Shown here in pieces: positions 42,000 through 64,000 of a stretch of DNA of 64,000 nt. The position numbers and the translations under genes were made by a program. How positions within the stretch are numbered: position 1 is the stretch's first letter; every line of letters begins with the position of its first letter. Origin of the DNA: an uncultured Candidatus Saccharibacteria bacterium. GTDB taxonomy: Bacteria > Patescibacteriota > Minisyncoccia > UBA6257 > 1-14-0-10-44-23. Below the pieces are notes generated by a model. The model did no database searches. It was not told the DNA's origin and saw only the letters and a program-made list of their open reading frames with translations. The DNA lies in the NCBI GenBank assembly GCA_964549935.1, contig CAZJVT010000003.1, forward strand, positions 14,634 to 78,633, read 5' to 3'.

Positions 42000-42436
42000 A
42001 CTGGCGCCACGGCACCCTCCGTCTCTGGATCGCGGCATCGGCACTCTGGATACTTGCCGTCTTCGCGCTCGCCTGGCCGGTCGTGACCCCAGTGGTGCAG
42101 GCGGCAATCGACGCCAATCCGTTCGATGCGCTCGCCTCCCTCCCCGTGGAATGCCGGTATGCGCGCGGAACGAGCGGAGTCGACTATCAGGCAGCCGGGC
42201 CCCTGTGCTTCTACGAGGAGGCCGCCTTCAGGAAGCTGTATCCCGACAACAAGCGAGAATGGATCGACATCATGACCGAGCAGCACGAGATGCTCGGTCT
42301 TTCCTACTCCCCGCCGCCGCAGCCCTGGCCCTTGGTTCTCAGATGGTCCCTGCTCGGGGTCCTGCCGCCGATCGGCGTATTCGCTCTCGGGTTGCTCGTC
42401 CTATGGGTGGCGCGGGGGTTCAGGCGTCCGGCCTGA
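41996..42436 (+). CDS. integral membrane protein (GTG start overlapping upstream TGA)
   Basis: Hydrophobic segments include LRLWIAASALWILAVFALAWPVV and LGVLPPIGVFALGLLVLWVA. Confidence 0.4.
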   Translation: MNWRHGTLRLWIAASALWILAVFALAWPVVTPVVQAAIDANPFDALASLPVECRYARGTSGVDYQAAGPLCFYEEAAFRKLYPDNKREWIDIMTEQHEMLGLSYSPPPQPWPLVLRWSLLGVLPPIGVFALGLLVLWVARGFRRPA

Positions 42437-42977
42437 AGCTCGATCGGGCGCCGGCGATCCGTGACATGCCGATCTCCGTCTTCCACTCCTCGAACCACGC
42501 TTCCGCGCGCGTCCTGGCATCCTCGAGATGCAGCTCGATTGCGTCGTCCAGGATGTTCCGTCGATAGCGGGGATCGCCGAGCTCCGTGACGACGATCTCC
42601 GGGCCGTCAAACTGATCCGCGGTGACGTCGACGATCAGGCGGCTCATGGCATCAACGCACCAGTAGTGGCTGTGGCAGGCCCCGCCCTGGGCAATGAAGC
42701 CACCAGGGCCGACGCGATGGTTCAGGTTCTCGTCGTCCGGGTCCGGATCGGCGATGCCGCCATCGACCAGCCATAGGCCGCTGGTTCCTTCGTTGAGGAT
42801 CTCCACCAGGAAGATCGCGGAAAAACGGCACATGCCCAGGGACGCGATGTCGTCGGGAACGCTCCTCTCGGCCTTCCATTCTTTCCATCGAGGCTCAAGG
42901 AACGCGCGCGCCTTCGTGGCGAGATCGACCAGGTCCGGACGTACGATCGGACGCGGCTCGACGAGAAGGCCCGTCAC
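42420..42977 (-). CDS. hypothetical protein; last gene of the IcmB/DotO-headed operon
   Basis: GTGA start/stop overlap with the upstream gene. Confidence 0.35.
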   Translation of the reverse strand: MTGLLVEPRPIVRPDLVDLATKARAFLEPRWKEWKAERSVPDDIASLGMCRFSAIFLVEILNEGTSGLWLVDGGIADPDPDDENLNHRVGPGGFIAQGGACHSHYWCVDAMSRLIVDVTADQFDGPEIVVTELGDPRYRRNILDDAIELHLEDARTRAEAWFEEWKTEIGMSRIAGARSSFRPDA

Positions 42978-43420
42978 TGAAGCTTGAGCTCCTCGCCCTT
43001 CGGCACCGGGAGCTGAGGGGAAGGATAGTTCCGCCGCGCGGCACTGATCGCCGGCGCGTGCTCGCGGTGCCACCGATGGACGGCGGCGAAGTCGGGATCG
43101 GTATTGTGCTCGTCCACAACGAAGCACAGAACCCGGGCAAGAGCCAGCTCGGACGCGCGAAGGCGTTCCATCTCGGATGTCAGGGCGGCATCGGCTTTCG
43201 TCAGCCGATCGACCTCCTCGGCAACGGCCTCGATCGCCGCGAGATTAGTCGCTCCCTTGCCTTCGACGATCCGATTTCCATTCCGCATCACGATGATTGC
43301 CACGGGCTCGGCGCTGCCAAGCTCATCGCTGTCGATGATCGACCAGCCAAGGGCTTTCAGGTCTGAAAGCTTCTCGTTGAAGGCACGGAAGGCGGCGATC
43401 TTTTCCTGGCTCGGAGGCAT
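42974..43420 (-). CDS. hypothetical protein (148 aa)
   Basis: Starts 5 nt after the upstream stop. Confidence 0.4.
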   Translation of the reverse strand: MPPSQEKIAAFRAFNEKLSDLKALGWSIIDSDELGSAEPVAIIVMRNGNRIVEGKGATNLAAIEAVAEEVDRLTKADAALTSEMERLRASELALARVLCFVVDEHNTDPDFAAVHRWHREHAPAISAARRNYPSPQLPVPKGEELKLQ

Positions 43421-43425
43421 GGTGG

Positions 43426-44160
43426 CTATCCGTTGGTCAAGGGTGGGGTAGTCTCGAGTTTCATATGCTCCGCCTCCCGCGAGCTCGTATTCGCCCCGGC
43501 ACGCTGATCCGGATCTACTGGCGACCCCGCGGGAGACGAAGCGTCGGGCAGGTTGTGGCTGGCCTGCTCGATCTCGAGCGGCCGCCCATCACGAAAGCAT
43601 CCCGTCGGCGAGCTGATGACGCCCTCGGCGCAGGCACGCCAGAGGATGACGTCGACCGTCGCAACACGAAGCCTGGTCTTGCGGGCGAGGTCGGCGCATA
43701 GCGCTTCGACGCTCGTGCCGTGTTGGTCCGCTAGACGCTGCAGGTGGACGTCCGGCTTGGCGACGTCGATGCCGAAGTTCTTCGCAAGGTGGTACTTCGT
43801 GATGCTGCCGATCCACGGCAGGTCGGCGCACCAGCCGAGCTTGTCTTGGACCGTCTGGTATTCGGCGAATAGCTTCTGGCGCTCGCTCCAGATCCTGTCG
43901 ATCGCTCCCGCCTTGCCCTTGTGGCCGAAGACGGATGCGGCGCTCTCGCCCGCGTCGATGGCTTCCATGATCCGGAGATAGATGCCGCGGGCAACGGTGT
44001 TCTTCATGCCGGAGTTGCAGATCACGAAGATGATCTCGCGGGCAAAGGCGTCGGGATCCGTCGGGGCCTGGACGTTCTCCGACCAGTCGACGTCGCCGTG
44101 ATAGAAGCCGAGACGCTCGAGATCGGCGCGGATCGAATGAAAGTCGGACATGGAGATCAT
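43426..44160 (-). CDS. hypothetical protein (244 aa)
   Basis: Start at M74 (MISMSDF...) gives an ATGA overlap with the upstream gene. Confidence 0.4.
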   Translation of the reverse strand: MISMSDFHSIRADLERLGFYHGDVDWSENVQAPTDPDAFAREIIFVICNSGMKNTVARGIYLRIMEAIDAGESAASVFGHKGKAGAIDRIWSERQKLFAEYQTVQDKLGWCADLPWIGSITKYHLAKNFGIDVAKPDVHLQRLADQHGTSVEALCADLARKTRLRVATVDVILWRACAEGVISSPTGCFRDGRPLEIEQASHNLPDASSPAGSPVDPDQRAGANTSSREAEHMKLETTPPLTNG

Positions 44161-44447
44161 GGCGGCTCGATCCTTGAGGCATCGATGCGCCGCGTCCCCA
44201 CCTTGACCGGAATCAGGATGTTTCCTTTCTCGATGCGATCGACCTCGATCTCGACTTTGGTCAACGCTTCGAGGTCGGATTCGCCCTCGCCCTTGGCGGC
44301 CACGTCCCCCTTTGTCATCAGCCAAAATGTGTGCGCGATGCCAGCGAGGCGATAGTCGTTGTGGACGGCTACGGTCCAACCTCGGCCACGCAAGGTGGCG
44401 AGCTTGAGCTCGGTGGCCCTGGCATAGGCAGCTCCGTCAGGCTTCAT
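44157..44447 (-). CDS. hypothetical protein (96 aa)
   Basis: Start at M52 (MKPDGAAY...) gives an ATGA overlap with the upstream small membrane gene. Confidence 0.35.
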   Translation of the reverse strand: MKPDGAAYARATELKLATLRGRGWTVAVHNDYRLAGIAHTFWLMTKGDVAAKGEGESDLEALTKVEIEVDRIEKGNILIPVKVGTRRIDASRIEPP

Positions 44448-44638
44448 CGCACCACCTGCCCGCTGAAGCGCTCCAGCACCTCGAGCACCGGGATCAGCAC
44501 GAGGATACCGGCGAAGCTGAAAGCCTGGGCCAGCTTCGATGGAGGATCGGTCTGGAGGATGCGTGTCAAACAGATGCCCTGAGCAAGACCTGCCGCCCAA
44601 AGAAGGGCCGCTACCTGATAGACGGTGAACTGGAGCAT
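44444..44638 (-). CDS. small membrane protein (64 aa, 2 TM)
   Basis: Begins 1 nt after the IcmB/DotO-like stop. Sequence VYQVAALLWAAGLAQGICL...FAGILVLIPVL. Confidence 0.4.
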   Translation of the reverse strand: MLQFTVYQVAALLWAAGLAQGICLTRILQTDPPSKLAQAFSFAGILVLIPVLEVLERFSGQVVR

Positions 44639-47746: not shown

Positions 47747-47760
47747 GCCTGTCGCTTTTA

Positions 47761-47838: not shown

Positions 47839-48297
47839 TTGATGGCTGGCGAATTGTCGCTTTCGCCTCAACGCTGTAGGATGTTCCTACAGGATAAGAG
47901 TGGCGAGGACGTCATGTCGATGTTCGTGGATCTCAAGGGCAGGCTAAAGACCTACGCGATGGTCGATCCCGTCAAGAAGCTGGTTCTCGCCACCTGCAGC
48001 TATGTCGGTCAGGACTCCGACCGGGTGATGCAGAACCTGAAGAAGGCCGGTCACGAGAACCTGGTGCTTCACAATCTCACCCATCCGAAATGCCCGGACT
48101 GGCTCAGGGAGATGATGCGAGCCGACCCGGATTACTGCCGCGGCCGCATGGACCAGTACGACGCCCGCGCCAGGACGCTCCGGAGCCGGGCGGCAGCCCT
48201 GGTGACGGAAGCCGAGGAGGAGGAAGCAAGAGCCGCGCAATGGCGGGAGCTGGTCGAAGCTGCCTCGAAGCCGAAGGACCCGTCGCCGGGGATGTAG
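47839..48297 (+). CDS. hypothetical protein (152 aa); ends ...DPSPGM
   Basis: Divergent from the icmB-like gene. The 3' end CCGTCGCCGGGGATGTAGCGG resembles the junction cassette. Confidence 0.4.
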   Translation: MMAGELSLSPQRCRMFLQDKSGEDVMSMFVDLKGRLKTYAMVDPVKKLVLATCSYVGQDSDRVMQNLKKAGHENLVLHNLTHPKCPDWLREMMRADPDYCRGRMDQYDARARTLRSRAAALVTEAEEEEARAAQWRELVEAASKPKDPSPGM

Positions 48298-48304
48298 CGG
48301 CGCG

Positions 48305-49387
48305 CTACTTGACTGCCCGAAGCTTCAAGGTGGGAGCTGGCTTTTGCCGGCCCACCTTCTGATACGGACTCCTTTCATTCATGCTTTGAGCATAAAGGCG
48401 GCGATCGCCAACGCTCTCCAGGCCCTTCCTTCTCCAGACGGTCTCGACGAACTTAGCCGTTACTCGCTCCCCCATGCGGTTCACCGCCGCTGCCGTGAAC
48501 TCGCTGTCGCCCTCGGGGCTAATCGTTGTCTGCAGCAGAATCTTGTCGATGGTGACGTCAGGGTCGCCAGACGCCCACGCCAGCCTTTTCCGGAGAACCG
48601 AAGAAGGCAACAGAGCAGGTTGCCTCGCCTCGCGCTCTGGCGGCGCAACAGAAGGCGGAGGCGATTCAGGCGGGAGTATCAGGAAGGATCTCGATCGCGG
48701 CAGTCGCTGGCTGCGCGGGTTCTTTTTCCCGAACAGATCCAGTCTCGCCTGTTTCACCATCTTGAACCGAGCGCGCTCCTCGAATTTCTGTTTTTTCTTG
48801 AGGAGCCTCGCTGATTGCAAGCTCGATGGAGAGGAGGACAGGTCTTCGGAGAATTCCTGTCGCTCAATCTTTCTGGACAGCGCATATGAGCGGAGGATCT
48901 TCGAAATCCTCCCACTTATCAGCGTCAACCCGAGACCGAGAAGCCGGTCACGGATGTCGGGTATTTCGAGCTGGGGTTCCCGCCAGACGATGGTGAGGAC
49001 AACACGCTCGATCGGGTCTCTGACTTCATCGAAGCCGGGAGGAAGATTCCCAGGCGGGCGAGACTGCAAGTATTCGAGCTGGCGAACTCGATACCGCTCC
49101 ATGGCGCTGGTAAGGGTCTCGAGATGGCCAGCCTCCTTCACATGGTCGAAGAAGCTCGTGGCTATCCGATTTCGGCTCTTCGAGGCCGTCGCGAACGATG
49201 CGATCGCCTCGACGACCTCAATAGGTAGATGTGGCAGAGGCCCTCTGGCGGCATTTTCCATCCGCCAAAGAACTGTCCGTGCCTTTTCTAGAAGCCGCCA
49301 ATACGGTTCGCACTTGGACATACGCGGCGAAGTTACAACACCGTTATTGCGGAATGCGACTCCTTCAGGGAAGGCAGTCGGCGCCAT
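48305..49387 (-). CDS. hypothetical protein (360 aa) in a lower-GC segment
   Basis: GC is roughly 52-58% versus about 66% in the flanks. The sequence is Lys/Arg/Ser-rich. Confidence 0.45.
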   Translation of the reverse strand: MAPTAFPEGVAFRNNGVVTSPRMSKCEPYWRLLEKARTVLWRMENAARGPLPHLPIEVVEAIASFATASKSRNRIATSFFDHVKEAGHLETLTSAMERYRVRQLEYLQSRPPGNLPPGFDEVRDPIERVVLTIVWREPQLEIPDIRDRLLGLGLTLISGRISKILRSYALSRKIERQEFSEDLSSSPSSLQSARLLKKKQKFEERARFKMVKQARLDLFGKKNPRSQRLPRSRSFLILPPESPPPSVAPPEREARQPALLPSSVLRKRLAWASGDPDVTIDKILLQTTISPEGDSEFTAAAVNRMGERVTAKFVETVWRRKGLESVGDRRLYAQSMNERSPYQKVGRQKPAPTLKLRAVK

Positions 49388-49909: not shown

Positions 49910-50260
49910 TCAGGCCGCCGCCTTCTCTTCCGGCGACCCTTCCTTCTGTCGCCGCGCCATTCGCTCGGCCGCATGCTCTTTGGCATAGGCCAGGCGCTTG
50001 TCCACGGTCTGCAGGTCCATCCGGCGCCAGAGGCTGTAGACGCCGCCGGCGCTGACGTTCACGCCGCGGATATCGAGCTCGAAGGCGACGCGGCCTGATC
50101 CGTCCCTGGGATGCTCGCAGACATGATCGAGGATGTGGTCGACGATCTCCTTGGCGATCCGCCGCGTACCGCGTTGCGGCGCACCGGCCGCGGCGTCGCA
50201 GGCCGCGGACGGATGTCGATCTACGGCTCCAGCGTCCTCGCTGATCGATCTGTCGGTCAT
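49910..50260 (-). CDS. small HTH-like protein (116 aa)
   Basis: ELDIRGVNVSAGGVYSLWRR resembles a transposase/regulator HTH. Confidence 0.35.
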   Translation of the reverse strand: MTDRSISEDAGAVDRHPSAACDAAAGAPQRGTRRIAKEIVDHILDHVCEHPRDGSGRVAFELDIRGVNVSAGGVYSLWRRMDLQTVDKRLAYAKEHAAERMARRQKEGSPEEKAAA

Positions 50261-50282: not shown

Positions 50283-52073
50283 TCAGGCCGTGACGCGCGT
50301 GCGCTCGGCGACGATCAGCTTCCCATCCGGTCCCCGCACGCGTCGCGTCATGGTGATCTGTTCTCCCGGAGCGGCGCCGAGCACGCTGAAGTCGATCTGC
50401 GGCATGCCGCCCAAATAGGCGCCGCCCTCCGGCTGCGCTTCCTCGAGATCGGCGTCCTCCGCTTCGCCCGCCGGCGCGCCCTCCTCCTCTCCGATGCCTT
50501 CTCCGGCATCGCCGGATCCATAGAGCCTGACGACGACGGCCTGGCCGATCTCGGAGACGCGTTGAGCCGCCTTGCCGGCATCGAGCTCGCCGAGACCGTC
50601 GATATCCCACAGCGAATGTCGCGCGAGATCGCGATCGACAGCGGCGATCGAGCGGATCCAGGCTTCCTGGAGGCCGCGCTTGTCGCCGCCCCAGTCCTCG
50701 GGCGACGGCACCTCCATGTCGCCGGCCTCGAACAGCGTCGTCAGTTGCGGGGTCAGGCCGATCGCGAAGGCATCCTTGAGGAGGCCGGGAATCTCGGCCG
50801 AAGAAACAGAGACCTTCATCGCGCCGATCGAATAGTTGATGACCGTGTAGCCGAGCTCGTGCATGCGCATGGCATCGCGGTACATGGCCAGGCGATCGAT
50901 CATTCTCAGCCAGACGTCGCGGGGGCCGGGCGGCGGCTGTCCCTTGTCGTCGCCGCGGCGGGCACCCTTGCGCATCGACTTGCACGCGGCCAGCCACAGG
51001 CATTCGGCGAAGACGCCAGCCGACCAGGAGGCATGGAGCGCCGGATGATCGAGCGCATCGATGAGCCCGGGAACGAGAACGGACTCGACTTTCTCGAAGC
51101 CCTTGCCGATCCAGGCGCCCTGGATCTCGATCTCGGAGATGCGCGAGAGCTCGAGGGCCTCCGGGAGCGGCGACCAGGTCCGGCGTGCGGGCTTCCGCGT
51201 GCCCGCATCCATCGCGCCCTGGCTGAATCCGAAGACCTGGAGGGTCGCGACCTCGACGCCCGACGGAAGAGAGATGTTCACGATCGCCGGCCGGTTCGTC
51301 GCCTCGAGCCATGCGAGCTGGGCCGTGGCGTCGCCGCCTTCCATCCTCGCCACGGGGACGAATTCCCAGGGCCCGACGGGGAACGACTGCCGCAGCATCG
51401 AGATCGCGTGCGCGAGCCTAGGCCGCCTCAGAACGACTTCGGTCTTGTTCCTCGAGGAGACGAAGCTCGTCCGCGTCCAGAGCTGGCGCGCATTCTCCAG
51501 CGGGAACACCATGTCGGCCGGATAGTCCTCGACCTGGTGGACGAGACGGGCCAGGTCATGGACCAGGGTCGGTGCCGAGATCTGGCGGATCGCCTCGGCC
51601 CGGATCTTCTCCTCCGGCGGGATCGGTCCGTGCAGGCCGCTGCGGCGGCGCCAGGTCGCGTTCGACAGCGCCCGCTTGAAGGCCAGGGCGCAATGGCCCA
51701 TGACGCGGCCGAAGCATTCGGCCAGGACCGCGGTCGCATGCGAGGGATCCTGGTCGTCGAGGCCCCACTCCGAGAGCGCGAACGGAATCGTGACCTTGAG
51801 GAAATCGTTTCGCCGGAAGAAGCCCGACGTCGTCAGGCCGGATGCCAGGAAGCCATGATAGTCGGCGTTGGTCAGCCAGAGCGTGGTGTTGCCGAGCTCG
51901 GCCGGCGTCTCGAAGCGGAACGGCGCATCCTTGACGGCATTCCGTCCGCCCTCGCACGCCCAGCCCGGCCCCGGGGAGCCTCCGTCGAAGAGCACGACGC
52001 CGAAGCGGAGCTCCTGGATGTCCTGCTGCGTATCGGCCGCGGCGGCGGATGCGGTCATGTCGGCGTCCTGCAT
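50283..52073 (-). CDS. hypothetical protein (596 aa) within T4BSS-like cluster
   Basis: Start at M204 (MQDADMT...), 3 nt after the upstream stop. Has an acidic C-terminal region. Confidence 0.45.
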   Translation of the reverse strand: MQDADMTASAAAADTQQDIQELRFGVVLFDGGSPGPGWACEGGRNAVKDAPFRFETPAELGNTTLWLTNADYHGFLASGLTTSGFFRRNDFLKVTIPFALSEWGLDDQDPSHATAVLAECFGRVMGHCALAFKRALSNATWRRRSGLHGPIPPEEKIRAEAIRQISAPTLVHDLARLVHQVEDYPADMVFPLENARQLWTRTSFVSSRNKTEVVLRRPRLAHAISMLRQSFPVGPWEFVPVARMEGGDATAQLAWLEATNRPAIVNISLPSGVEVATLQVFGFSQGAMDAGTRKPARRTWSPLPEALELSRISEIEIQGAWIGKGFEKVESVLVPGLIDALDHPALHASWSAGVFAECLWLAACKSMRKGARRGDDKGQPPPGPRDVWLRMIDRLAMYRDAMRMHELGYTVINYSIGAMKVSVSSAEIPGLLKDAFAIGLTPQLTTLFEAGDMEVPSPEDWGGDKRGLQEAWIRSIAAVDRDLARHSLWDIDGLGELDAGKAAQRVSEIGQAVVVRLYGSGDAGEGIGEEEGAPAGEAEDADLEEAQPEGGAYLGGMPQIDFSVLGAAPGEQITMTRRVRGPDGKLIVAERTRVTA

Positions 52074-52078: not shown

Positions 52079-53158
52079 TCACCCTTGCTGGAGCGCCTTG
52101 TCGATGGCCTTCTCGGCCTGGACCAGGACCCGACCCCAGGTCGTCGGCGGGCATCCGCCGAACGGTCCGTTCGGCGAAACCCAGTAGTCGAGGATGTCGG
52201 GGAAGCGATCGCGGCCGTCCCATCCGATCTTCCGGTCGCGATGGACGAGGATGGTGCCGCCAAGGCGGCGCGCACGATCGGAATAGGCTGGCGGATCCAG
52301 GCGAAGGAGGGCCGCGCCGAGGACGTACGGGCTCGCCGTCGCCGCATAGTCGGCGGCGCAAGCCTGCATCCGGCCGATATAGGGGCTGAATCCGGATCCG
52401 GCATCGGGACCGATCAGCGACACCCAGAGCCGGTCCGCGATGTCCGCGAACTGGTCCCGCATGTGGCGGGCGACATGGATGGCGCGAACCAGGTTGTTGA
52501 CCGACGCCTGCGAGACGCCCTTCAGCAGCACCACCACGGCCTCGCCGTTCTCGCCGACCCGGCCCGGGTGGTAGCACCCATGGCACATGAAGCAGACGGT
52601 GGTGAGGTTCTTCGGATCGAAATTCGTATGGTCGTCGTCGAGATTGTGGATCTCCTGATGCTCGAGCGACGTGAAGCCGCAATGAGCGCAGGTGTGCCCG
52701 TCCCGGCGGAAGACCTGCTGGCGGATCTGCTCGATCTCGCGCAGGCGGTTCTTGTCGGCGCTGAGCGACTCGTAGCCGGTCTGCTCGACGTCGCCGATGC
52801 TGTGGCCCGCGTCTCCGAGGCGCCAGGTCGCCGGCGAGGCCGAGATGACGAGGGGAAGAAGCTTGCGGGTCGCGACGGGGAGCCGGGCTGATTGAGAAGC
52901 AGCGCGATCCGCCGGATCCTCGGATGGCTTCGCCTTGTGGACGCCTGGCCGCAGGACCGGAGGGGTCTTGTATTCGCGCGCCTGGTACGGCCTCGAGGAT
53001 TGCTTCTGGCCGTCGAAGACCGGCCGGTCGAAGACAGAGTCTTCAGGCTTGGCATCGGTCGCGTCGCCGGCGGTTCCCGTCCTCGAATGGAATTCGTCCG
53101 GATTGGTCCGGACTCCTTCTCTCGAAGGACGGGAACCGCGGCGAATACGTCCTGCCAT
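52079..53158 (-). CDS. cysteine-rich protein in the position of IcmJ/DotN
   Basis: HTCAHCGF...VCFMCHGCYH is a Zn-binding cluster, and DotN is a Zn-binding Cys-rich protein. The family assignment is tentative. Confidence 0.3.
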   Translation of the reverse strand: MAGRIRRGSRPSREGVRTNPDEFHSRTGTAGDATDAKPEDSVFDRPVFDGQKQSSRPYQAREYKTPPVLRPGVHKAKPSEDPADRAASQSARLPVATRKLLPLVISASPATWRLGDAGHSIGDVEQTGYESLSADKNRLREIEQIRQQVFRRDGHTCAHCGFTSLEHQEIHNLDDDHTNFDPKNLTTVCFMCHGCYHPGRVGENGEAVVVLLKGVSQASVNNLVRAIHVARHMRDQFADIADRLWVSLIGPDAGSGFSPYIGRMQACAADYAATASPYVLGAALLRLDPPAYSDRARRLGGTILVHRDRKIGWDGRDRFPDILDYWVSPNGPFGGCPPTTWGRVLVQAEKAIDKALQQG

Positions 53159-53615: not shown

Positions 53616-54173
53616 CTAGTTCACCCGGATCCCGAAGGTCTGAACGACGATCGCGTCGAGATCCATGATGTTGGCCATCAGCAGGCCGCCCACGAGGACG
53701 GTGACGCCGTGGCCCATGGTGGCGTTGCTCTGCCCTGACCCGACCGCCTTCATGATGAGAAGGCCGCGGGCAGTGGCGAGAACGCCGAGCAGCTGCAGCA
53801 CGCGATAGACCGCGAGCTGGACACTCGCTGCATTGGTGTCGAGGTTGAAGCCCTGCTGGATGCCGGGATCGAGCGATCTGTAGAGCTCCCATTTGGACTC
53901 GTCGATCAGCGTGCCCTTGCCGGCCAGCATCACGAGAGCGAGGCTGAAGAGGCAGATGCCGACGATGCCGGTCGCGATCGGGTCTTTCATCTCCCCCGGG
54001 CGCCCATGGCCGCCGCCGATCGCCGACGCTTTCACCAGCGCCGAGAAGACGAACCACACGCCGATGATGCCGCATACCGTCCAGGTGAGCCCGAGGAGAT
54101 CCGGCACGAGCTCGCTCAGCGTGAGGATCGCGTGCTGCGCCGCTTGGCTGGTGGAGGAGCTGAAGTCGCCCAT
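53616..54173 (-). CDS. membrane protein, IcmC/DotE-like by size and position (185 aa)
   Basis: Multiple TM segments, including TWTVCGIIGVWFVFSALV, IVGICLFSLALVMLA and VTVLVGGLLMANIM. Confidence 0.3.
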   Translation of the reverse strand: MGDFSSSTSQAAQHAILTLSELVPDLLGLTWTVCGIIGVWFVFSALVKASAIGGGHGRPGEMKDPIATGIVGICLFSLALVMLAGKGTLIDESKWELYRSLDPGIQQGFNLDTNAASVQLAVYRVLQLLGVLATARGLLIMKAVGSGQSNATMGHGVTVLVGGLLMANIMDLDAIVVQTFGIRVN

Positions 54174-54201
54174 GGCTGATCGATATCCCGTACCGGTCCG
54201 G

Positions 54202-56073
54202 TCAGCCGCCGCTCTTGAGGGTCGTCTTCTCGAGGACGACCTCCCATTGGCCCTTGGCCAGCCGGATCTCGCGGATCTTGCCGAGCCCCGGAAGAGTGTC
54301 GCCGGGGCGCACCTCGACGAGCTCCGCCTCGGGGGCGTTCATGTTCTGCAGCCATGCGAGACCCGGCGTCGCCGAGCGGATCGCCCAGCTCGGCTTCGAG
54401 GTCCTGGCATCCGCTTTCTCGGCCGTGGCCTTATCCGCGGTCGATGCGGCCTTGTCGTTGGTGGCCTTTGCGTCCGCCTTCGCGGTCTTTGCCGGAGGTT
54501 GGCGGAAGGGATTGGCCTCGGCGGCCGGCGGCGCGGCATGCGCCGGCATTGCCGCGGCGGACTGGACCTGCTTCACGCGTCCGTCGATCTCCTGGATTTC
54601 GGCGCGGAGCTTCGCGGTCGCGGAAAGAGACTGGCTCGAGTTGGCGGCCGAACGGGCAAGGCCGGCCTCGACCGCCTGAAGTCGCTCGTCCAGTCGCGTA
54701 AGCGCGGCCGCGAGCTTGTCGAGGAGATCGGGAGCGACGACCTGCCCGGCCGGGGAGTTGGTCCCCGCCGCCTGGGCGGGGCCCGCGGTCGAGATCGCCC
54801 GCGAGACCGGAGCGGACGGCTGAGCGGGAGATTGTGCCGGAGCCGGAGATGGAGCCGCAGCGAGAACCGGGAGCGAAGAAGGCGCCGGAGCCGGTGCGGG
54901 AGTGATCGAAGCGACAGGAGCCGTCGCCTGGGGCGGAGAGAGACCTTGCTGGCCTGGGCTAGGCACGGAACCCTGGCCCGTCACGGTCGGGACGGGCACG
55001 GCCGGCGGCGCCGGTTGTGCCGAGCCCTGGGCACCTGGAGCCTGGCCACCGGGAGCTGGAGCGATCGAGGCGACCGCGCCGGAAGGCTTCTGCTGCCCGG
55101 GAACCTGAACCTGGGCAGCGACGATCGGCGCCGATGCGCCGCGGAGCGCCGACGCGTCGACCGGCGACGGCGACGAATTGAAATGACCTCCGCTGAAGAG
55201 CACGGCGACGGATACGAAGACGGCCGAGGCCGCCATCGCTCCGTAGACGATCAGCTTCCGCGTCTTCTTCCCGTCGTCGACCGGCTCTTCCTGCGCGGCA
55301 TCGGCATTGTCCGCTTCCTCGACGACCTCGCCGTCGGCCGCCTCGGAATGAACCTGGTCATCCTCGTCGCCATCATGGATGGGATCGTCATCGTCCTGCT
55401 CGGCGTCACGGTCGTCGCCCTCGTCCTGTGGCGAGAGGTCGAGCGTGGAGAGATCCTCGAGAGGCTCCTCCGCGACATCCGGAACCGGCGGCAGCGGCGC
55501 CAGGGGAACGGTCTCCGGGCTCAGCGGGGCGCTCAGATGGTCCCGCACCAGATCGAGGGGATCGGATCCCCTGGGGGAGGCCGGCGGAAGGCCGGCCGGA
55601 ACAGGTTGTGCCGGAAGAGGCTGGGCTGCGACATGCGGTGCCGGCGCCGGCTGAGGCGCGGAAGCGATCGGCGGAGATGGACGACGCATCTCATGGGCGA
55701 TCGGCTGGTCGTCATCGGAAACGGCCGGCGGAACCGGCCCCGGTTGAACCGCGGCGGGCGCGGCCGAGGCCGGCGGCGTGGCGATCGCCGAAGGGAGCGG
55801 CGGTGCGGGAGGAGGCATGTAGGCAGGCGCGGCGGCCGGCGCCGGAACAGGACGCGGCGCGGCCATCTTGGTCATGACCGCGGCGCCGCCCTCGGACGGA
55901 GAAGCAGGGGAAGGAGACGGAGGGGCGACGGGCGGAGAAGCCGGCGCCTGAACCGCGGCCTGGTTGGCAACCGGCCTCGCGGGCATGGCGGCGGGCCGCT
56001 GGGCCGGGAACGGCTTGCCTGCCGGGCCGCTCCGGTCGAAATCCACATCCGCAGAGGCCAGCGCGCTGTTCAT
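54202..56073 (-). CDS. Pro/Ala-rich bitopic membrane protein (623 aa) in the DotF/IcmG position
   Basis: An acidic N-terminus is followed by a TM (LIVYGAMAASAVFVSVAVLF), a long P/A-rich low-complexity region, a coiled coil and a C-terminal globular tail. Confidence 0.4.
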   Translation of the reverse strand: MNSALASADVDFDRSGPAGKPFPAQRPAAMPARPVANQAAVQAPASPPVAPPSPSPASPSEGGAAVMTKMAAPRPVPAPAAAPAYMPPPAPPLPSAIATPPASAAPAAVQPGPVPPAVSDDDQPIAHEMRRPSPPIASAPQPAPAPHVAAQPLPAQPVPAGLPPASPRGSDPLDLVRDHLSAPLSPETVPLAPLPPVPDVAEEPLEDLSTLDLSPQDEGDDRDAEQDDDDPIHDGDEDDQVHSEAADGEVVEEADNADAAQEEPVDDGKKTRKLIVYGAMAASAVFVSVAVLFSGGHFNSSPSPVDASALRGASAPIVAAQVQVPGQQKPSGAVASIAPAPGGQAPGAQGSAQPAPPAVPVPTVTGQGSVPSPGQQGLSPPQATAPVASITPAPAPAPSSLPVLAAAPSPAPAQSPAQPSAPVSRAISTAGPAQAAGTNSPAGQVVAPDLLDKLAAALTRLDERLQAVEAGLARSAANSSQSLSATAKLRAEIQEIDGRVKQVQSAAAMPAHAAPPAAEANPFRQPPAKTAKADAKATNDKAASTADKATAEKADARTSKPSWAIRSATPGLAWLQNMNAPEAELVEVRPGDTLPGLGKIREIRLAKGQWEVVLEKTTLKSGG

Positions 56074-56100
56074 GAGAACCCTCGGTAACTGACGACTTCC

Positions 56101-56179: not shown

Positions 56180-56950
56180 TCACGCCGCCCGGGCGGCGGC
56201 CTTCGTCCTCGAACGCAGGCCCCTGGAAGCAGCCAACTGCTTCCTCCTCCCGGTCTCGAGGGCAGCGTCGGTCTTGGCCAGGCACTTCTTGACGAAGCCC
56301 CGGCCCTGCGTCGACCCCAGCCAGAGCGCCAGGCGATTGGCGAGATCGGCCGAGCGCATGGACTTCCTGTCCGGGACCTCACGGAACATCGCATGCAGGA
56401 GGCCGCGGCCGCTGTCCGCCGCGATGTCCGCCTCCGTCATCAGGACGGCATCGAGCGGCGTACGCCCGAAATTCAGGCCGGGTCTGCCGACGTTCTCGAC
56501 AGCCCATGCCTTGAGGGCCGCCTCCTCGCTGGCGTCCTTCAGGGCCCGCTCGATGAAGCAACGACCGACATTGGTGCCCAGCCATTTGACCATCGATGCC
56601 GCCAGGGTCGCGTCCATCTGGCGGAGCTCGTAGGGAAAGCTGCCGAGGACGCCGCGAAGACGGGGATTGACGCGATCGATCTCGCTTCCCTGACCCCAGA
56701 GGTCGTACTGGGCATGCATCTCCTTCCGCCAGAAGGCGGCGAATACGCGCTCGCCCACGACGTCCTTCCGCGGCGCGACCTCGGGCTCGTGACGGAGCGG
56801 CGCGGTCGGCTGCAGGATCTCCGACTCGTCCTCTCCAGGCTCGCCCCAGAGGTCGGCTTCGACCATGACGCTCATCTGTGTCTCCTTGGCGGGCGGGATC
56901 TCGGGCGATGGCTTCTCGCGCTCGGCCTTGGTCGTAGTGAGTCGCGCCAT
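56180..56950 (-). CDS. hypothetical protein (256 aa) with internal duplication
   Basis: ATLAASMVKWLGTNVGRCFIERALKDASEEAAL repeats as ADLANRLALWLGSTQGRGFVKKCLAKTDAALET. Confidence 0.4.
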   Translation of the reverse strand: MARLTTTKAEREKPSPEIPPAKETQMSVMVEADLWGEPGEDESEILQPTAPLRHEPEVAPRKDVVGERVFAAFWRKEMHAQYDLWGQGSEIDRVNPRLRGVLGSFPYELRQMDATLAASMVKWLGTNVGRCFIERALKDASEEAALKAWAVENVGRPGLNFGRTPLDAVLMTEADIAADSGRGLLHAMFREVPDRKSMRSADLANRLALWLGSTQGRGFVKKCLAKTDAALETGRRKQLAASRGLRSRTKAAARAA

Positions 56951-58100: not shown

Positions 58101-58105
58101 GACGC

Positions 58106-59625: not shown

Positions 59626-59634
59626 AGTCGATCC

Positions 59635-59663: not shown

Positions 59664-59746
59664 TCAACAGGAGAAGCGGCGCCAGGACAGCCCTGGGTTA
59701 TCGACGGTTCCGGAGAAGATCGTCGAGATGCGAACGGCTTCGCGGC

Positions 59747-59968: not shown

Positions 59969-59975
59969 GGAGATC

Positions 59976-61043
59976 TCAGTTGCCCGCGGATTCCGAGCTG
60001 GCTGCCGGGGCCTGGCGCTGCTGCGCGGTCGCGGGACCGGCAATGCGGATCGGCTGGTTGGGGACCTGTGTCGGCCCTGCCTGCTTCGCCGCGGTCTTCG
60101 GGGTGTCGGTCAGCCTGACGCTGACCTGCCTTCCCTGGTCCGAGGCGAGGACGACCGGCGTATCAGGCAGCTGGTAGACCGTGTAGCCGCCGGATCCCGC
60201 CACCGACGCAAGCCACGACGGGGACAGCAGCGTCATCTGCGTGCGCAGGTAGACGTAGCCGCCGAAAGACCAGGCGCGACCGGAGCCGGCGCCGAGGAAA
60301 AGCGGTTGCGCTCCCTCCGGGGGTGTCCCGTCGAGGAACGACATCAGGATGGGGTTGCCGGTTTCTGGGGCCCGGGGCTGGATGATCGGCGCCTGCGCGT
60401 TCGGGCCGCGTGCCTGGATCCGGAAAGAGACCTGCGCATCGGTTGCCGGCATTCCGGTGTCCATCGCGAGCGACACCGTCAACGGCATCGACGCCTTCTC
60501 GAGGATCACCCCGATGTTCGTGGTGCCGTGATAGACCTGGGGCGTCACCGAGATCGCATTCGACCCGTCGCCCATGGTCATCACCTGGATGCGATCGGCG
60601 TTCCCGACCACGACCTTGAGCACCGGCCACTGCTGTCCGGTGGTGTCGTAGAAGGCCAGCATCGAGACATGGTTGGCGCCGAGGCGCACGACCGGGATCC
60701 GGGCGCCGGGCTCGAGCGAGACGTCCTCCGAGCGGCTTTCCGGCTTCGGAGCGGGGCCGGGCGGCTGGGCGGCCTGCTTCTGGCCCTGGTCCAGGATCCG
60801 GCGGAGCTCCTTGATCTGTTGCGGCGAGAGCGGGAGGACCGAGTCGGTCGTCGCCTTGAAGGCTTCGTCACGGATATCCGGCGGCGGCGGCAGCCTGTCG
60901 GACGGGGCGGCCTGAGACGCGGATGGGACCGCGGGCGCCGCCGCCTGGGCCAGCGCATCGACCGCGGCCAGCGCCAGCGCCGCGCCAAGCGCGGACGCGG
61001 CGAGGATCGAAAAGGCTGGTCTGGATCGCATCGTCGGCCCCAT
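59976..61043 (-). CDS. secreted protein (355 aa), possibly DotH/IcmK/TraN-like by position
   Basis: Signal peptide MGPTMRSRPAFSILAASALGAALALAAVDALAQA. It sits between the DotI-like and DotG-like genes, as in I-type systems. Confidence 0.4.
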   Translation of the reverse strand: MGPTMRSRPAFSILAASALGAALALAAVDALAQAAAPAVPSASQAAPSDRLPPPPDIRDEAFKATTDSVLPLSPQQIKELRRILDQGQKQAAQPPGPAPKPESRSEDVSLEPGARIPVVRLGANHVSMLAFYDTTGQQWPVLKVVVGNADRIQVMTMGDGSNAISVTPQVYHGTTNIGVILEKASMPLTVSLAMDTGMPATDAQVSFRIQARGPNAQAPIIQPRAPETGNPILMSFLDGTPPEGAQPLFLGAGSGRAWSFGGYVYLRTQMTLLSPSWLASVAGSGGYTVYQLPDTPVVLASDQGRQVSVRLTDTPKTAAKQAGPTQVPNQPIRIAGPATAQQRQAPAASSESAGN

Positions 61044-61076
61044 GGATTGACCCTTCGATGATACCCCGATCCGCGG

Positions 61077-61123
61077 CCTTATGCACCTGCTTGTGCATGA
61101 TGCATAAGGCCGGGCAAAAAAAA
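61077..61123. repeat. inverted repeat CCTTATGCA-N15-TGCATAAGG followed by A8 tract
   Basis: Reads ccttatgcacctgcttgtgcatgatgcataaggccgggcaaaaaaaa. It is a local AT-rich patch in the spacer between two T4BSS-like genes. Confidence 0.5.
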
Positions 61124-61498
61124 TCAAAGGACGCCCTGGGACACGAGCTGGTCGCGAAGGAAGACCGCGGTGTCGCAGACCGGATCCGGGCACTTGTCCA
61201 GGTGCGCCTTGAGCCTGGCCGTATCGACGATGCCGATGCCGTCCAACTCCATCTCCCAGACTTGCAGGGCCGTGAACGGCGCCTCTTCCGCCTGCGGCGC
61301 CTCGAGGGTCTCGATCGTCTCCGGCGCATAGAAGGCCGAGGCGGGCGCGCCGGCATACTCGCCGGCGCCGATCGTCAGCGGGACCGGGCTCAAGGGGGAG
61401 CGGATCGCCTTGGTGCCATCGACCAAGCGCGTCGTGAGGACGAGGGTGGTAGCCATCTGGGTATTCTCCTTGGGCTTTTCTGGTGCGAAGTGGAACAA
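61124..61498 (-). CDS. hypothetical protein (124 aa)
   Basis: Begins 8 nt after the DotI-like stop. Confidence 0.35.
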   Translation of the reverse strand: MFHFAPEKPKENTQMATTLVLTTRLVDGTKAIRSPLSPVPLTIGAGEYAGAPASAFYAPETIETLEAPQAEEAPFTALQVWEMELDGIGIVDTARLKAHLDKCPDPVCDTAVFLRDQLVSQGVL

Positions 61499-61508
61499 GT
61501 GGATGGCC

Positions 61509-62159
61509 TCAGCTCGCGGGCCGCTCGATGAGCTGCTGGATGCCGATGCCGTCCGGGGATTCGGTGGTGGGGCGACGGATCAGGAGCACGTCGGCGACCA
61601 GGCGCTGCTGCAGCCTGTCGGACGCCGACTGGTAGGTGACGAGGATCGGGATCTCGAGGCGCCAGGCCATGACCCCGCCGGTGATGCCGCTGGCCTTCAG
61701 GATCGGCGCGGACTCCGGCACCGCGGTCGAGACCTTCTTCTGCTCGACCAGGGCAACGAGGTTTCGGCTTTCCGCCAGGGCACGGTCGTAGTTCTTCCAG
61801 CCTTCCGGCGTGAAGCAGCGGTTCGCGGCGGTGAGGCTGGCCTTGTAGTTGACGAAGTCGAGGGTGTGGATGCGGACGACGCAGTCGGTCGCCCAGGACA
61901 TCACCCCCTGGAGCTCCATCGAGGGCCGATCGAGAGGGACCATCGGCGTCAGGGTCCCGGCCGGGGTCGTCGCGAAGTAGCGCGGCTCCGCCTGGCGAAG
62001 GGCCATCGCTCCGGCGACGACGATGGCGACGGCGCCGGCGGCAAGCCCGGCGATCGCGAGCTTGGTCGATCGGCGATAGCCGTCCCGATAGAACTCGTTC
62101 CGGGTGACGACTGTCCTGAGGGCGTCGGCGCCCTTTTTCACGGCTACGGTCGAAGTCAT
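61509..62159 (-). CDS. IcmL/DotI/TraM-like type IVB secretion protein (216 aa)
   Basis: The size, an N-terminal NEFYRDGYRR stretch followed by a single TM (LAIAGLAAGAVAIVVAGAMAL), and a periplasmic domain together match DotI-family architecture. Confidence 0.55.
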   Translation of the reverse strand: MTSTVAVKKGADALRTVVTRNEFYRDGYRRSTKLAIAGLAAGAVAIVVAGAMALRQAEPRYFATTPAGTLTPMVPLDRPSMELQGVMSWATDCVVRIHTLDFVNYKASLTAANRCFTPEGWKNYDRALAESRNLVALVEQKKVSTAVPESAPILKASGITGGVMAWRLEIPILVTYQSASDRLQQRLVADVLLIRRPTTESPDGIGIQQLIERPAS

Positions 62160-62323
62160 TTCCCAACCCCTGCGCCGGAGAGGTCGACGACATCCGGCTT
62201 CATCATGGTCGCCGATAAGAGCGAAAGTGACCGAGAAATATTGTTGCTAAGACGTCCGGAATTCCGGACGTCGCGTCCGTCCATCTGGTTAAGAGCGCTC
62301 ATTTCCTGCTTCTCCTCGATGCT

Positions 62324-64000
62324 TCACGAAGCCGCGGCGAAGGTGCCCTGGCCCGCGCGGTCGAAGACCTCGACCTCGATCTCGACCGCCTGGCGGATCG
62401 GGATCTCGACATACTGGCTGGAGCAGCTCGCCCCGAAATAGGCAGGCTTGCTGGACGAGCGCGCGCCCGGCACGCGCTTCAGCATCCGCAGCCACCCATG
62501 CGACCAAGCGCTGTTCTGCAGTGTCTCGGCGATCTTCGGATGGGTGTTCGAGATCATCAGCATGCGGTCGGCCAAGTTGATCTTGATGCCGAGGCGCATC
62601 AGCTGGGTCTGGGCAACCTGCGGCGGGACCGGGGTCTCGGCATCGTTGTTCACGGCCCAGGAGTTCTTGCCCTGCTGAGCCCGGAGGGCATCGACGACCA
62701 GCTCCGCCGCCGTCCTGGTGACCGTGCGGTTGGCGGCGCCGCCAAGCTCGATGCGATGCTCCCTGTTCAGGATCATCGAGAGGCACCGCATCTCGTCGTT
62801 GGTCGCCTCCTCATGGATGTACTCGCTCCATGAATAGGTCCGGAGGAAGCCCTTCGCCTCCTCCTCGCTGATCGCGTCGTCCGAGTCGAGCGCATAGGCG
62901 CCCGCCATGAGAGTGCCGATCATGTCTCCCAGGCGCTGGTTGCCGAAGATCGCGGCAGCCGCGCGCGACAGGGTCCTGGCGTTCTTGCGGACGATCGGCG
63001 CCATCTTGACCATGCGGGCGAGCAGCCGGACCGAGAACTCGTGGGTGAGGTTCTCGCGCACCAGCCTCTCGATCTCCTCGAAGTTCGCGGTGTCGGCGCG
63101 GACCTTCTCCTCGTCGTCCTTCCGCGGCGGCGGCGCCAGGTTCATGACGATGATGCGGCTCATGTCGGCCTGCTGCTGGATCGTCACCGAGATCGAGGAC
63201 AGCATCGCCATCGACCGGATCAGGAAGACTCGCTGCTTCTGGTCCTTGTCGGACTTGCGGATAGGCGCGCCGCTCTCCGCGGTGGCGGAGCGCATCAGCT
63301 CGAGCACCCGCTGCATGCGCACGCGGGCCTCGGCATCGTTGGACTCGGCCTCGTCGAAGAGGATCGGGCGGGCGTCGATGCCGAGCGCGGCGCGGATGCC
63401 CGCCTCGGTCGAGGTCGACTGGCAGTAGAGGGCCGTCGACTCCAGCAGCCGCTGGACGATGTTGGTCATGATCCAGGTCTTGCCGGCGCCGGCCTGAGCC
63501 GTGACCCAGCAATGGGGCCGGTACTCGAGCGCCCCGCAGATCGGCGCCAGCGCGATCCATCCCGCGAGGAGCGCGCCGGTCGCCGGCTTGTCGCCTTTCG
63601 GCGTCCGCTCCCACCGGAGCCGTCCGCAGATCTCGAGAAGAACGGTTGCCTCGTCGGCGGAGAGAGGGTCGTCCAGGTCGCCGATGCGAAGCGGCTTGCC
63701 GCGCTCGTAGACGTAGGGGCTCTCGTGGTCGGCGAGACCCATCGCCTGGCCATCGACGATCAGCTTGTCGCCGGTGTGCATCACGACGGCGGATCCCCGT
63801 CCGGCTTCCTCGATCCAGGCCCCGAGGCCGCGGACCTTGTCGGCATCGAAAATCTTCTGCGCATGGCAGCGCTGCATGAGATCGGAGGCCGCCGCCTCCC
63901 AGGCGATGCCGTTGCGGCCGCCGGGATACCGCGCTTCCCAGAACTGGACGGGGGCCAGCTGGAAGAGATCGTGGCTCCGGTGCTGGCCGGGCTTCAGGAC
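62324..64000 (-). CDS. P-loop NTPase (Walker A AQAGAGKTW, Walker B ILFDEAE); 5' end lies beyond the window
   Basis: The reading frame stays open upstream of the annotated Met all the way to nt 64000. It may be a primase-helicase- or relaxase-associated ATPase. Confidence 0.5.
   Translation of the reverse strand, partial: VLKPGQHRSHDLFQLAPVQFWEARYPGGRNGIAWEAAASDLMQRCHAQKIFDADKVRGLGAWIEEAGRGSAVVMHTGDKLIVDGQAMGLADHESPYVYERGKPLRIGDLDDPLSADEATVLLEICGRLRWERTPKGDKPATGALLAGWIALAPICGALEYRPHCWVTAQAGAGKTWIMTNIVQRLLESTALYCQSTSTEAGIRAALGIDARPILFDEAESNDAEARVRMQRVLELMRSATAESGAPIRKSDKDQKQRVFLIRSMAMLSSISVTIQQQADMSRIIVMNLAPPPRKDDEEKVRADTANFEEIERLVRENLTHEFSVRLLARMVKMAPIVRKNARTLSRAAAAIFGNQRLGDMIGTLMAGAYALDSDDAISEEEAKGFLRTYSWSEYIHEEATNDEMRCLSMILNREHRIELGGAANRTVTRTAAELVVDALRAQQGKNSWAVNNDAETPVPPQVAQTQLMRLGIKINLADRMLMISNTHPKIAETLQNSAWSHGWLRMLKRVPGARSSSKPAYFGASCSSQYVEIPIRQAVEIEVEVFDRAGQGTFAAAS

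Follow-up and report, generated by a model that had tools for sequence, protein, structure and literature searches.

A probable I-type conjugation cluster with interspersed phage-type genes on a large, mostly unmatched element

What kind of machine is specified by the long string of minus-strand genes at the right-hand end of this stretch of DNA, and what are phage-type genes doing inside it? The 64,000-nucleotide stretch (the whole of which is called 'the window' here) is part of contig CAZJVT010000003.1 of assembly GCA_964549935.1, and an earlier note made from its letters had proposed that positions 42,420 to 64,000 hold a type IVB secretion or conjugation cluster with interspersed genes. 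The analysis reported here points to the central mating-pair-formation block of an I-type system (class MPF_I; type IVB, like that of plasmid R64 and Dot/Icm) on a large mobile element, most likely serving conjugative DNA transfer, a reading that is held to be probable though well short of certain. As a member of MPF_I the secretion system is ordinary, if divergent. What is unusual is that its tra genes are split into two blocks some 50 kb apart, that a phage-type primase occupies the position of sog, and that phage-type cargo, including an Acb1-family gene, lies within the operon.

From position 64,000 down to 44,639 the minus strand is a near-gapless string of genes, with spacers mostly of 3–120 nt and two junctions at which genes overlap by ATGA (Table 1). 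Every open reading frame (ORF) that the earlier note had listed was found on this strand and at the size given. Genes called independently on metagenome contigs that share this sequence (Logan assemblies of SRR14271332/335/336/340/344/345) agree, with two small ORFs of 48 and 73 aa in addition, and the sequence is identical across these six runs. The GC content of the window is ~65%, and real genes are recognisable by a GC content at third codon positions (GC3) of 0.8–0.9. No DNA near-identical to the 21.6-kb region was found by megablast against plasmids and phages, and tRNA and Rfam scans of the window found nothing. Promoter and terminator scans gave counts at chance level, the hairpin after the TraU gene alone being noteworthy. 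The locus was compared with ~30 I-type loci from plasmids, genomes and metagenomes, plus R64, and was read in a context of roughly 100 kb (about -30 kb to +72 kb in window coordinates) of an element contig of at least 224 kb (224,460 bp). The span from the DotI gene to the TraU gene is 17.5 kb here and ~10 kb in compact clusters such as that of pND6-2.

The order of the genes is primase, DotI, DotH, DotG, a gene in the TraP position, TraQ-like, TraR-like, DotN-like, a 596-aa gene and TraU/DotO. The proposal that this mirrors icmL-K-E-G-C-D-J-B and traM-U is borne out by profile matches, PDB matches, synteny and iterative searches. The 216-aa protein exceeds the cut-off of the NCBIfam model IcmL_DotI_only (183 bits against 175), has one transmembrane segment at residues 34–52, and has homologs in 16 related loci, including R64 traM. 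The 355-aa protein aligns with Legionella IcmK (PDB 6x62) with an E-value of 1.6e-44, and its N-terminus is predicted to be signal-peptide-like. The 435-aa protein has one transmembrane segment (residues 40–58) and a C-terminal TrbI/VirB10 domain, and matches the NCBIfam models for DotG (E 1.7e-46) and IncI1 TraO (E 2.8e-28), both under their curated cut-offs. Its identity rests on profiles and on homologs in related I-type loci, without a direct match to R64 TraO, whereas TraM and TraN matched R64 directly. The earlier note had made its reading depend on the 435-aa and 1035-aa proteins resembling DotG/TraO/VirB10 and IcmB/DotO/TraU, and on the neighbours not being a VirB set. The 435-aa protein does match DotG/TraO/VirB10-type profiles, and the neighbours (DotI, DotH, DotN, TraQ/TraR) are I-type, not VirB-type.

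The 1035-aa protein is, on direct sequence comparison, an unambiguous TraU/DotO homolog. Its phmmer E-value is 1.4e-106 to R64 TraU and lies between 1e-226 and 1e-285 for environmental I-type loci; a generic VirB4 match reaches only 5e-6. It falls in no Pfam family, shows faint VirB4/TraC similarity in profile searches and has no match among PDB sequences. Both of its ATPase motifs, Walker A (APPGKGKS) and Walker B (LCFDE), are intact. By tblastn, 3783 plasmids were matched, mainly from Escherichia, Klebsiella and Salmonella; 3222 of them are typed as conjugative, and one plasmid record labels the matched region IcmB. Across the genome, metagenome and plasmid collections that were searched, nothing exceeds 49% identity to this protein. 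Metagenome-assembled genomes (MAGs) of Legionellales, Coxiellaceae, Micavibrio or Berkiella supply many of the closest relatives of TraU and DotB, and TraU homologs of 39–44% identity are found on plasmids of Methylorubrum, Rhizobium, Bosea, Sinorhizobium, Martelella, Aminobacter, Brucella, Shinella and Roseomonas. In Aminobacter pSR4, genes annotated by the NCBI pipeline (PGAP) as IcmL/DotI, DotH, DotG and IcmT lie beside the TraU homolog. High-GC I-type systems are already represented in plasmid databases, and one in a high-GC replicon is not the notable feature that it had been taken to be.

The membrane proteins between DotG and TraU are more divergent. Iterative searching with the proline-rich 623-aa protein reaches syntenic proteins in 6 loci and, weakly, R64 TraP (E 6.8e-4). 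For the 185-aa protein, jackhmmer reaches R64 TraQ with E 8e-38, and the reverse search gives 2e-35. The 130-aa protein, with three predicted transmembrane segments, is connected in the same way to R64 TraR and also has weak matches to DUF6750 and the TrbC/VirB2 pilin family. These iterative-search E-values refer to a small local database of loci. A plus-strand ORF of 731 aa with high GC3 (53893-56088), picked by a GC3-based gene caller, is almost certainly an antisense shadow of the 623-aa gene.

The Cys-rich 359-aa protein matches the NCBIfam model NF038221 (E 8e-18; 64.7 bits, under its 100-bit cut-off) and aligns with DotN structures (5x42/6sz9, E 1.5e-13) such that the zinc-binding cysteines coincide; syntenic homologs exist in 14 loci. 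The 596-aa protein next to it had been counted in the earlier note, with the 288-aa and 256-aa proteins and a 2H enzyme, among inserts lacking type IVB counterparts. That description holds for the other three and fails for the 596-aa protein. Because homologs fill the same slot in pND6-2 and five other loci, sequence comparison identifies its gene as a conserved accessory gene of an I-type sub-group and not as an insert. It is not similar to R64 TraT, and that identity was rejected.

Immediately before the DotI gene, at the place of sog in the R64 order sog-traL-traM, lies the gene that had been noted as a partial P-loop NTPase. The P-loop is real, and the gene is now identified as the C-terminal part of a DnaG-type primase. 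The full gene, read on a longer contig, encodes a CHC2 zinc ribbon (PF01807, Zn_ribbon_DnaG) and has its Walker A motif (AQAGAGKT) at residue 712. Some 8 kb beyond the 3' end of the window contain the remainder of the primase gene and genes with weak GcrA and YqaJ matches.

Further support comes from DNA outside the window. A Logan contig of 131.9 kb agrees, without a single mismatch, with the first 10.9 kb of the window, and the upstream region was read from that contig and two walks via exact-match proteins (L023, L048, L053). The earlier note had advised looking beyond the stretch for DotA-, DotB-, DotC- and DotD-like genes, a relaxase and oriT. DotB, DotC and DotD were indeed found, in a second tra block 6-9 kb upstream of window position 1 and on the same strand as the cluster; no DotA/TraY or relaxase was seen in the ~100 kb. 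The block comprises DotD (PF16816), DotC/TraI (PF16932), DotB/TraJ (T2SSE) and IcmT/TraK. IcmT_TraK scores 72 bits, above its cut-off of 40, and for DotB and DotD these are the best models but fall under cut-off. The Dot models outscore those of the IncI1 Tra proteins, both for DotB (NCBIfam DotB 346 bits, TraJ 196) and for DotG (DotG 159, TraO 99). An actin-like gene of the ParM/StbA type follows, and then an IncI-type thin type IVb pilus cluster: TcpQ-like, PilN secretin, PAP_PilO, a T2SSE ATPase (PilQ-like), a T2SSF platform protein (PilR-like), PilS pilin and a PilV-like protein with N_methyl and Shufflon_N domains. The PilN type IVB secretin scores 333 bits, above its cut-off of 288. Together, the second tra block and the pilus cluster occupy the region 6-25 kb upstream of the window, all on the same strand. 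The literature names the pairing of such a secretion system with a thin type IV pilus as peculiar to MPF_I (PMC4027160).

An element with a DotB 84% identical to this one (Logan ERR14949497/ERR14949496) has the same local synteny of Hydrolase_2, RNase_T, DotD, DotC, DotB and IcmT. Judged by this sequence likeness, the element has at least one relative in the data of another study.

The system can be placed against three well-described relatives. It has the same order of primase, traM, traN, traO, traP, traQ, traR and traU as R64/ColIb-P9 (IncI1; reference order sog-traL-M-N-O-P-Q-R-S-T-U), and shares with it the traH-I-J-K-like block (DotD/DotC/DotB/IcmT) and the thin type IVb pilus with a Shufflon_N adhesin. 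However, identity to R64 is low (E 1e-106 for TraU, 1e-15 for DotI), no counterparts of TraL, TraS and TraT were found, the DotN-like and 596-aa genes being present instead, the two tra blocks are far apart, traV-W-X-Y do not follow traU, and two foreign cassettes lie in the operon. Plasmid pND6-2 of Pseudomonas putida ND6, classed as MPF_I by PLSDB, has DotI, DotH, DotG, a 310-aa protein, TraQ-like, TraR-like, HNH/DotN-like, a 596-aa homolog and TraU in the same order, with an A24 prepilin peptidase nearby. It differs in that its TraU is 38.7% identical, no genes separate DotG from the gene in the TraP position, one small ORF precedes TraU, and Acb1 and aGPT-Pplase-like genes are absent. In the Dot/Icm systems of Legionella and Coxiella the icmL-K-E-G-C-D-J-B order is the one mirrored here, DotI passes the equivalog cut-off, DotH and DotN match 6x62 and 5x42/6sz9, and the DotB and DotG models score best. 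In contrast to those systems, DotA, DotL/M, IcmS/W, IcmQ/R, IcmX and IcmF/H were not seen in the readable region, the DotN-like protein is the only coupling-complex subunit found there, DotG is 435 aa without the long repeat region (~1000 aa in those systems), and the genes lie on a mobile element that also encodes a primase and a thin pilus of the conjugative type.

The features that set the cluster apart are two three-gene cassettes inside the operon, with spacers of 3–30 nt, encoding proteins of 288, 82 and 256 aa (insert 1, between DotG and the gene in the TraP position) and of 116, 162 and 360 aa (insert 2, between the 596-aa gene and TraU). All the insert proteins are predicted to be soluble. 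None of these six genes, nor those of 110/124, 73 and 71 aa, has a counterpart in the ~30 related loci. A search for direct or inverted repeats flanking both cassettes gave nothing convincing.

The 288-aa protein of insert 1, assigned to the aGPT-Pplase clade 1 / HMUDK_hel family, matches the Pfam model HMUDK_hel over its full length. More than 1325 standalone homologs of ~285 aa are known at 65-72% identity. Genes 60-70% identical occur on 11 IMG/VR viral contigs that are otherwise unlike the window, and identities of 41-49% are found to genes of Rhizobium phages, cyanophage Pam3 (annotated aGPT-Pplase1), Acinetobacter phage SH-Ab 15599 and M6-like Pseudomonas phages. Relatives are present on just 22 of 72,556 plasmids, at up to 36% identity. 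The AlphaFold (AF2) model (predicted local distance difference test, pLDDT, 85; predicted template-modelling score 0.83) has as its top Foldseek neighbours in the PDB the HhH-GPD DNA glycosylases and a related queuine-salvage enzyme; these matches are weak (E 0.09, template-modelling scores 0.39-0.49) but consistent. The model thus indicates a helix-hairpin-helix (HhH) DNA-glycosylase-like fold, and this agrees with published work in which the aGPT-Pplases of phage thymidine-hypermodification clusters are said to resemble HhH glycosylases (PMC8989533). The protein is of the same family as the aGPT-Pplase and 5-HMUDK genes of phages M6, ViI, PhiW-14 and SH-Ab 15599 and is standalone here. In the window and its flanks no 5-hydroxymethyldeoxyuridine DNA kinase, clade-2 transferase, pyridoxal-phosphate enzyme or ThyA-type dUMP hydroxymethylase was seen, among many neighbours that cannot be annotated; a ThyX-type gene and a ribonucleotide reductase gene lie ~24-30 kb upstream. 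In the M6 in vitro reaction gp54 and gp51 are sufficient, and gp52, gp53 and gp55 are dispensable. On one IMG/VR viral contig (L034, 4435-10864) a 70%-identical homolog follows immediately after two large DNA methyltransferases, both orphan (C5-cytosine and N6-adenine), an arrangement that looks like an anti-restriction module. The 256-aa protein of the same cassette belongs to an uncharacterised family with members of ~200 aa, 278 representative homologs and 18 IMG/VR viral loci. It has no Pfam or PDB sequence match, and its confident model (pLDDT 85) has no structural neighbour in the PDB or BFVD.

In insert 2 the 2H phosphoesterase of the earlier note, rightly described as without a type IVB counterpart, can now be named. 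The 162-aa protein is a full-length match to the Acb1 family (PF23474, E 1.8e-28; 99.5 bits against a cut-off of 27) and aligns with Acb1 of Erwinia phage FBB1 (PDB 7t26, E 3.6e-17) at both HxT motifs (HTT and HITL). Like the phage Acb1 proteins (T4 gp57B; FBB1), it is therefore, on a strong sequence match, a putative enzyme acting against the cyclic-oligonucleotide-based antiphage signalling system (CBASS). Its relatives number 1478 phage records and one weak, partial hit among the 72,556 plasmids. The 116-aa protein had been listed as a helix-turn-helix (HTH) gene; its two HTH matches (HTH_21 and HTH_32) are both under cut-off, and no homolog was found in related loci. For the basic 360-aa protein nothing was found in Pfam, PHROGs, viral contigs or related loci. 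Anti-defence genes are known from plasmids (PMC11541004). In contrast to anti-defence genes of plasmid leading regions, the Acb1 gene here is inside the mating-pair-formation operon and not beside oriT.

If the apparatus assembles as in R64 Tra and Dot/Icm, DotC, DotD, DotH and DotG would form the outer core, DotI and the TraP, TraQ and TraR proteins would lie in the inner membrane, and DotO and DotB would supply the energy. The substrate would be the element's own DNA, with the adjacent primase in a Sog-like role. The primase is treated as a positional analogue of Sog. The cassettes, if co-transcribed with the tra genes, would cause Acb1 and the DNA-base-directed protein to be made when the cell mates, and their genes would then be phage-type counter-defence or DNA-modification cargo.

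Several observations weigh against this interpretation. No coupling protein (TrbC/DotL), DotM/TrbA, relaxase, oriT, DotA/TraY, TraV, TraW or TraX was seen in the ~100 kb, the search for the coupling protein and relaxase covering the Pfam-scanned window genes and the precomputed Pfam matches of ~38 kb of flanks; the system may thus be incomplete, and its transfer of DNA is putative. R64 TraV, TraW and TraX queries found nothing among the window proteins tested, TraY not being among the queries, and the four genes after TraU are dissimilar to TraV/W/X; the missing genes may lie elsewhere on the contig. The primase has no phmmer similarity to R64 Sog, so homology to it was rejected. Several components fit the Legionella models better than those of IncI1 Tra, and the cluster has a DotN, which R64 lacks; effector delivery is therefore possible. 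Co-transcription of the cassettes is deduced from spacing only, given the chance-level promoter and terminator scan. Finally, the GC3 of insert 2 (0.66–0.79) is below that of the core genes (0.82–0.92), which suggests a more recent acquisition, and this cassette may be a recent passenger without a functional link to the system.

Protein delivery is accordingly the alternative to be taken most seriously, unlikely as it is judged to be. The cluster would then either kill bacteria, as kib of Pseudomonas putida IsoF does, or deliver effectors in the manner of Dot/Icm, and some of the soluble proteins of no known family would be effectors, immunity proteins or chaperones. The preference for Dot/Icm models, the DotN-like coupling-complex subunit, the many close TraU and DotB relatives in MAGs of Legionellales, Coxiellaceae, Micavibrio or Berkiella and the lack of a relaxase in the region read all fit such a system. 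The environmental kib island, which serves interbacterial killing, presents a similar picture: in its 69.9 kb, 17 type IVB genes are likewise interspersed among 34 hypothetical genes (PMC9519443), a likeness in described gene content. However, no effector-immunity pair was identified here, and the IncI-type thin pilus with its PilV/Shufflon_N adhesin and the primase directly upstream of traM, genes that distinguish the cluster from kib, are hallmarks of conjugation. The system also lies on a mobile element of mostly unmatched genes with its own replication genes, IcmS/IcmW/IcmQ/IcmR and DotA were not found in the ~100 kb, and those inserts that can be identified are of counter-defence or DNA-modification types, not toxins.

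A variant in which conjugation and protein delivery are combined is more doubtful. Here the soluble phage-type proteins (Acb1, the aGPT-Pplase1-like protein, and the 256-aa and 360-aa proteins) would be injected through the type IVB apparatus into the recipient ahead of or with the DNA, disarming CBASS-type and DNA-targeting defences before incoming genes are expressed. In IncI plasmids the Sog primase is transferred to the recipient, and the idea is drawn by analogy. A further possibility is that the element chemically modifies its own DNA, given that it carries its own DnaE, DnaQ-like exonuclease, primase, ThyX and ribonucleotide reductase together with the aGPT-Pplase-like gene.

It is also improbable that the genes are a decaying, non-functional remnant of a type IVB system that foreign cassettes have invaded and that an insertion of ~50 kb has split. 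The tra blocks are contiguous in R64, the operon has foreign insertions and an opposite-strand ORF before TraU, and TraV/W/X/Y, the coupling protein and relaxase were not seen in the region read. Yet none of the ~20 secretion and pilus genes seen is broken or truncated, their codon bias is strong (GC3 0.82–0.92), and ATPase motifs, zinc motifs and topologies are conserved. The sequence is the same in six metagenome runs, the relative with 84% DotB identity retains the upstream synteny, and just ~100 kb of a contig that measures at least 224 kb was inspected. Extremely improbable, too, is a T-type (VirB/Trb) system or a look-alike encoded by a phage. In its favour, the DotG C-terminus matches the TrbI/VirB10 domain, TraU weakly resembles VirB4/TraC, and phage-type genes (the primase PHROG, Acb1, aGPT-Pplase-like, T4 gp30.3) occur in various parts of the element. 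Against it, none of the neighbours is of VirB1-9 or VirB11 type; DotI, DotH, DotN, IcmT, DotC and DotD are specific to I-type systems; no phage structural gene came up when 20 proteins were scanned against PHROGs; no tRNAs were found; and the profile results refute a VirB-type identity.

The gene listed as 124 aa, following DotI, is real, and an ATG start giving 110 aa is more likely for it. The reality of the 138-aa plus-strand ORF in the 558-nt gap upstream of TraU is uncertain, and it has no PHROG match. Downstream of TraU a 191-nt gap, holding the terminator-like hairpin, precedes what had been described as five small coupled genes, four consecutive ones with overlaps. The small genes are there, but number four, and they overlap at the 96/244 (ATGA) and 148/185 (GTGA) junctions only, the 244/148 junction being a 5-nt gap. 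They have no family matches and no homologs in the ~30 related loci, and are not components of the secretion system. A helix-hairpin-helix motif seen by eye in the 244-aa protein (43426-44160, minus strand; IGSITKYHLAKNFG...KPDVHLQR) has no Pfam or PDB sequence support and was rejected.

Most genes in window positions 1-42000 have no Pfam or PHROG match, among them an apparent four-gene operon (10645-14869) and six of the seven genes of a minus-strand run (21739-26563), the seventh encoding an RNase H domain protein. All eight window proteins with an exact match in a 15-billion-protein collection are singletons at 90% identity. Past the pilus cluster there are genes for ThyX (372 aa) and a class I/II ribonucleotide reductase large subunit (902 aa), and near the second tra block for an RNase_T-type (DnaQ-like) exonuclease and a Hydrolase_2 cell-wall hydrolase. 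The AbiEii protein presumably belongs to a pair of the AbiE type that serves as a toxin-antitoxin or abortive-infection system. Within the dnaE gene, Logan contigs from three runs end at ~28.09 kb and another starts at ~29.15 kb, which points to strain variation there, or else to a repeat or an intein-like insertion. The lack of structural PHROG matches in the 20 proteins scanned led to rejection of the whole element as a jumbo phage; it is probably a giant plasmid-like or integrative element, alphaproteobacterial, with its own replication and nucleotide-metabolism genes.

Table 1. Positions of the features discussed, in window coordinates (ORF, open reading frame)
Feature	Position	Strand	Basis or remark
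C-terminal P-loop part of 1102-aa DnaG-type primase, continuing beyond window end	62324..64000	-	phrog_35358 'DNA primase' E 8e-102
48-aa ORF	62156..62302	-	ATGA-coupled to DotI gene
DotI/IcmL/TraM, 216 aa, bitopic inner-membrane component	61509..62159	-	PF11393 E 9e-46; NF038072
Acidic soluble protein, 110 aa (124 aa from TTG)	61124..61456	-	no counterpart in related clusters
DotH/IcmK/TraN, 355 aa, secreted outer-membrane core-complex component	59976..61043	-	PF12293 E 2e-67; PDB 6x62
Very acidic ORF, 73 aa	59747..59968	-	metagenome gene calls
Basic ORF, 71 aa	59410..59625	-	ATGA-coupled to DotG gene
DotG/IcmE/TraO (VirB10-like), 435 aa	58106..59413	-	PF03743 TrbI E 5e-17; NF033900; NF033884
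Insert 1 gene 1, aGPT-Pplase clade 1 / HMUDK_hel family, 288 aa, phage type	57234..58100	-	PF18723 E 1.8e-50; phrog_2396 E 6e-67
Insert 1 gene 2, acidic protein, 82 aa	56957..57205	-	no family match, no homolog in related loci
Insert 1 gene 3, all-alpha protein, 256 aa, uncharacterised family	56180..56950	-	homologs also on viral contigs
Pro-rich bitopic protein, 623 aa, TraP/DotF(IcmG) position	54202..56073	-	transmembrane segment 274-292; 16% Pro; synteny
TraQ / DotE(IcmC)-like polytopic membrane protein, 185 aa	53616..54173	-	jackhmmer to R64 TraQ; three transmembrane segments
TraR / DotP(IcmD)-like polytopic membrane protein, 130 aa	53186..53578	-	jackhmmer to R64 TraR E 2e-17
DotN/IcmJ-like zinc-binding protein, 359 aa, ~140-residue N-terminal extension	52079..53158	-	NF038221; PDB 5x42/6sz9
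Soluble accessory protein, 596 aa, between DotN-like gene and TraU	50283..52073	-	same-position homologs
Insert 2 gene 1, 116 aa, weak HTH-like matches	49910..50260	-	HTH_21 E 4e-4; HTH_32 E 2e-3
Insert 2 gene 2, Acb1-family 2H phosphodiesterase (anti-CBASS type), 162 aa	49418..49906	-	PF23474; PDB 7t26
Insert 2 gene 3, basic orphan, 360 aa, atypically low GC3 0.66	48305..49387	-	no matches
ORF, 138 aa, upstream of TraU	47881..48297	+	GC3 0.82
TraU / DotO (IcmB)-type VirB4-like ATPase, 1035 aa	44639..47746	-	phmmer to R64 TraU; Walker motifs
Terminator-like hairpin, 37 nt after TraU stop	44577..44602	-	10-pair stem, then T-rich tail
Four small soluble genes (96, 244, 148, 185 aa)	42420..44447	-	no family matches
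DUF1194/VWA protein	40781-41455		
Strong T4 gp30.3 homolog	35702-36265	+	PF08010 E 1e-52
535-aa protein, phage-type HNH domain	34078-35685	+	phrog_5200; relatives directly downstream of TraU in pND6-2 and a Pseudoxanthomonas locus
DnaE-type DNA polymerase III alpha, 1267 aa	26573-30376	-	best plasmid-collection match Azospirillum replicon dnaE, 53% identity
RNase H domain protein, seventh gene of run	21739-22575	-	domain match
Two calcineurin-like metallophosphatases	16330-17217 and 20172-21044		
AbiEii nucleotidyltransferase toxin	8026-8988	+	PF08843 E 2.6e-20
AlkB-like 2-oxoglutarate-Fe(II) oxygenase	327-899		

The probable conjugation system described here adds a divergent member to the rare MPF_I class, and extends the IncI architecture of two tra blocks, a thin pilus and an adjacent primase beyond the Enterobacteria, to a giant element most of whose genes match no known family. 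Acb1 is essentially unknown on plasmids; here its gene is found inside a mating-pair-formation operon that also holds the gene for a phage-type protein of a DNA-hypermodification family. If this cargo is co-expressed with the apparatus or co-transferred with the DNA, conjugative elements would have a different route by which to pre-empt the immunity of the recipient, and CBASS-type signalling would be a constraint on conjugation.

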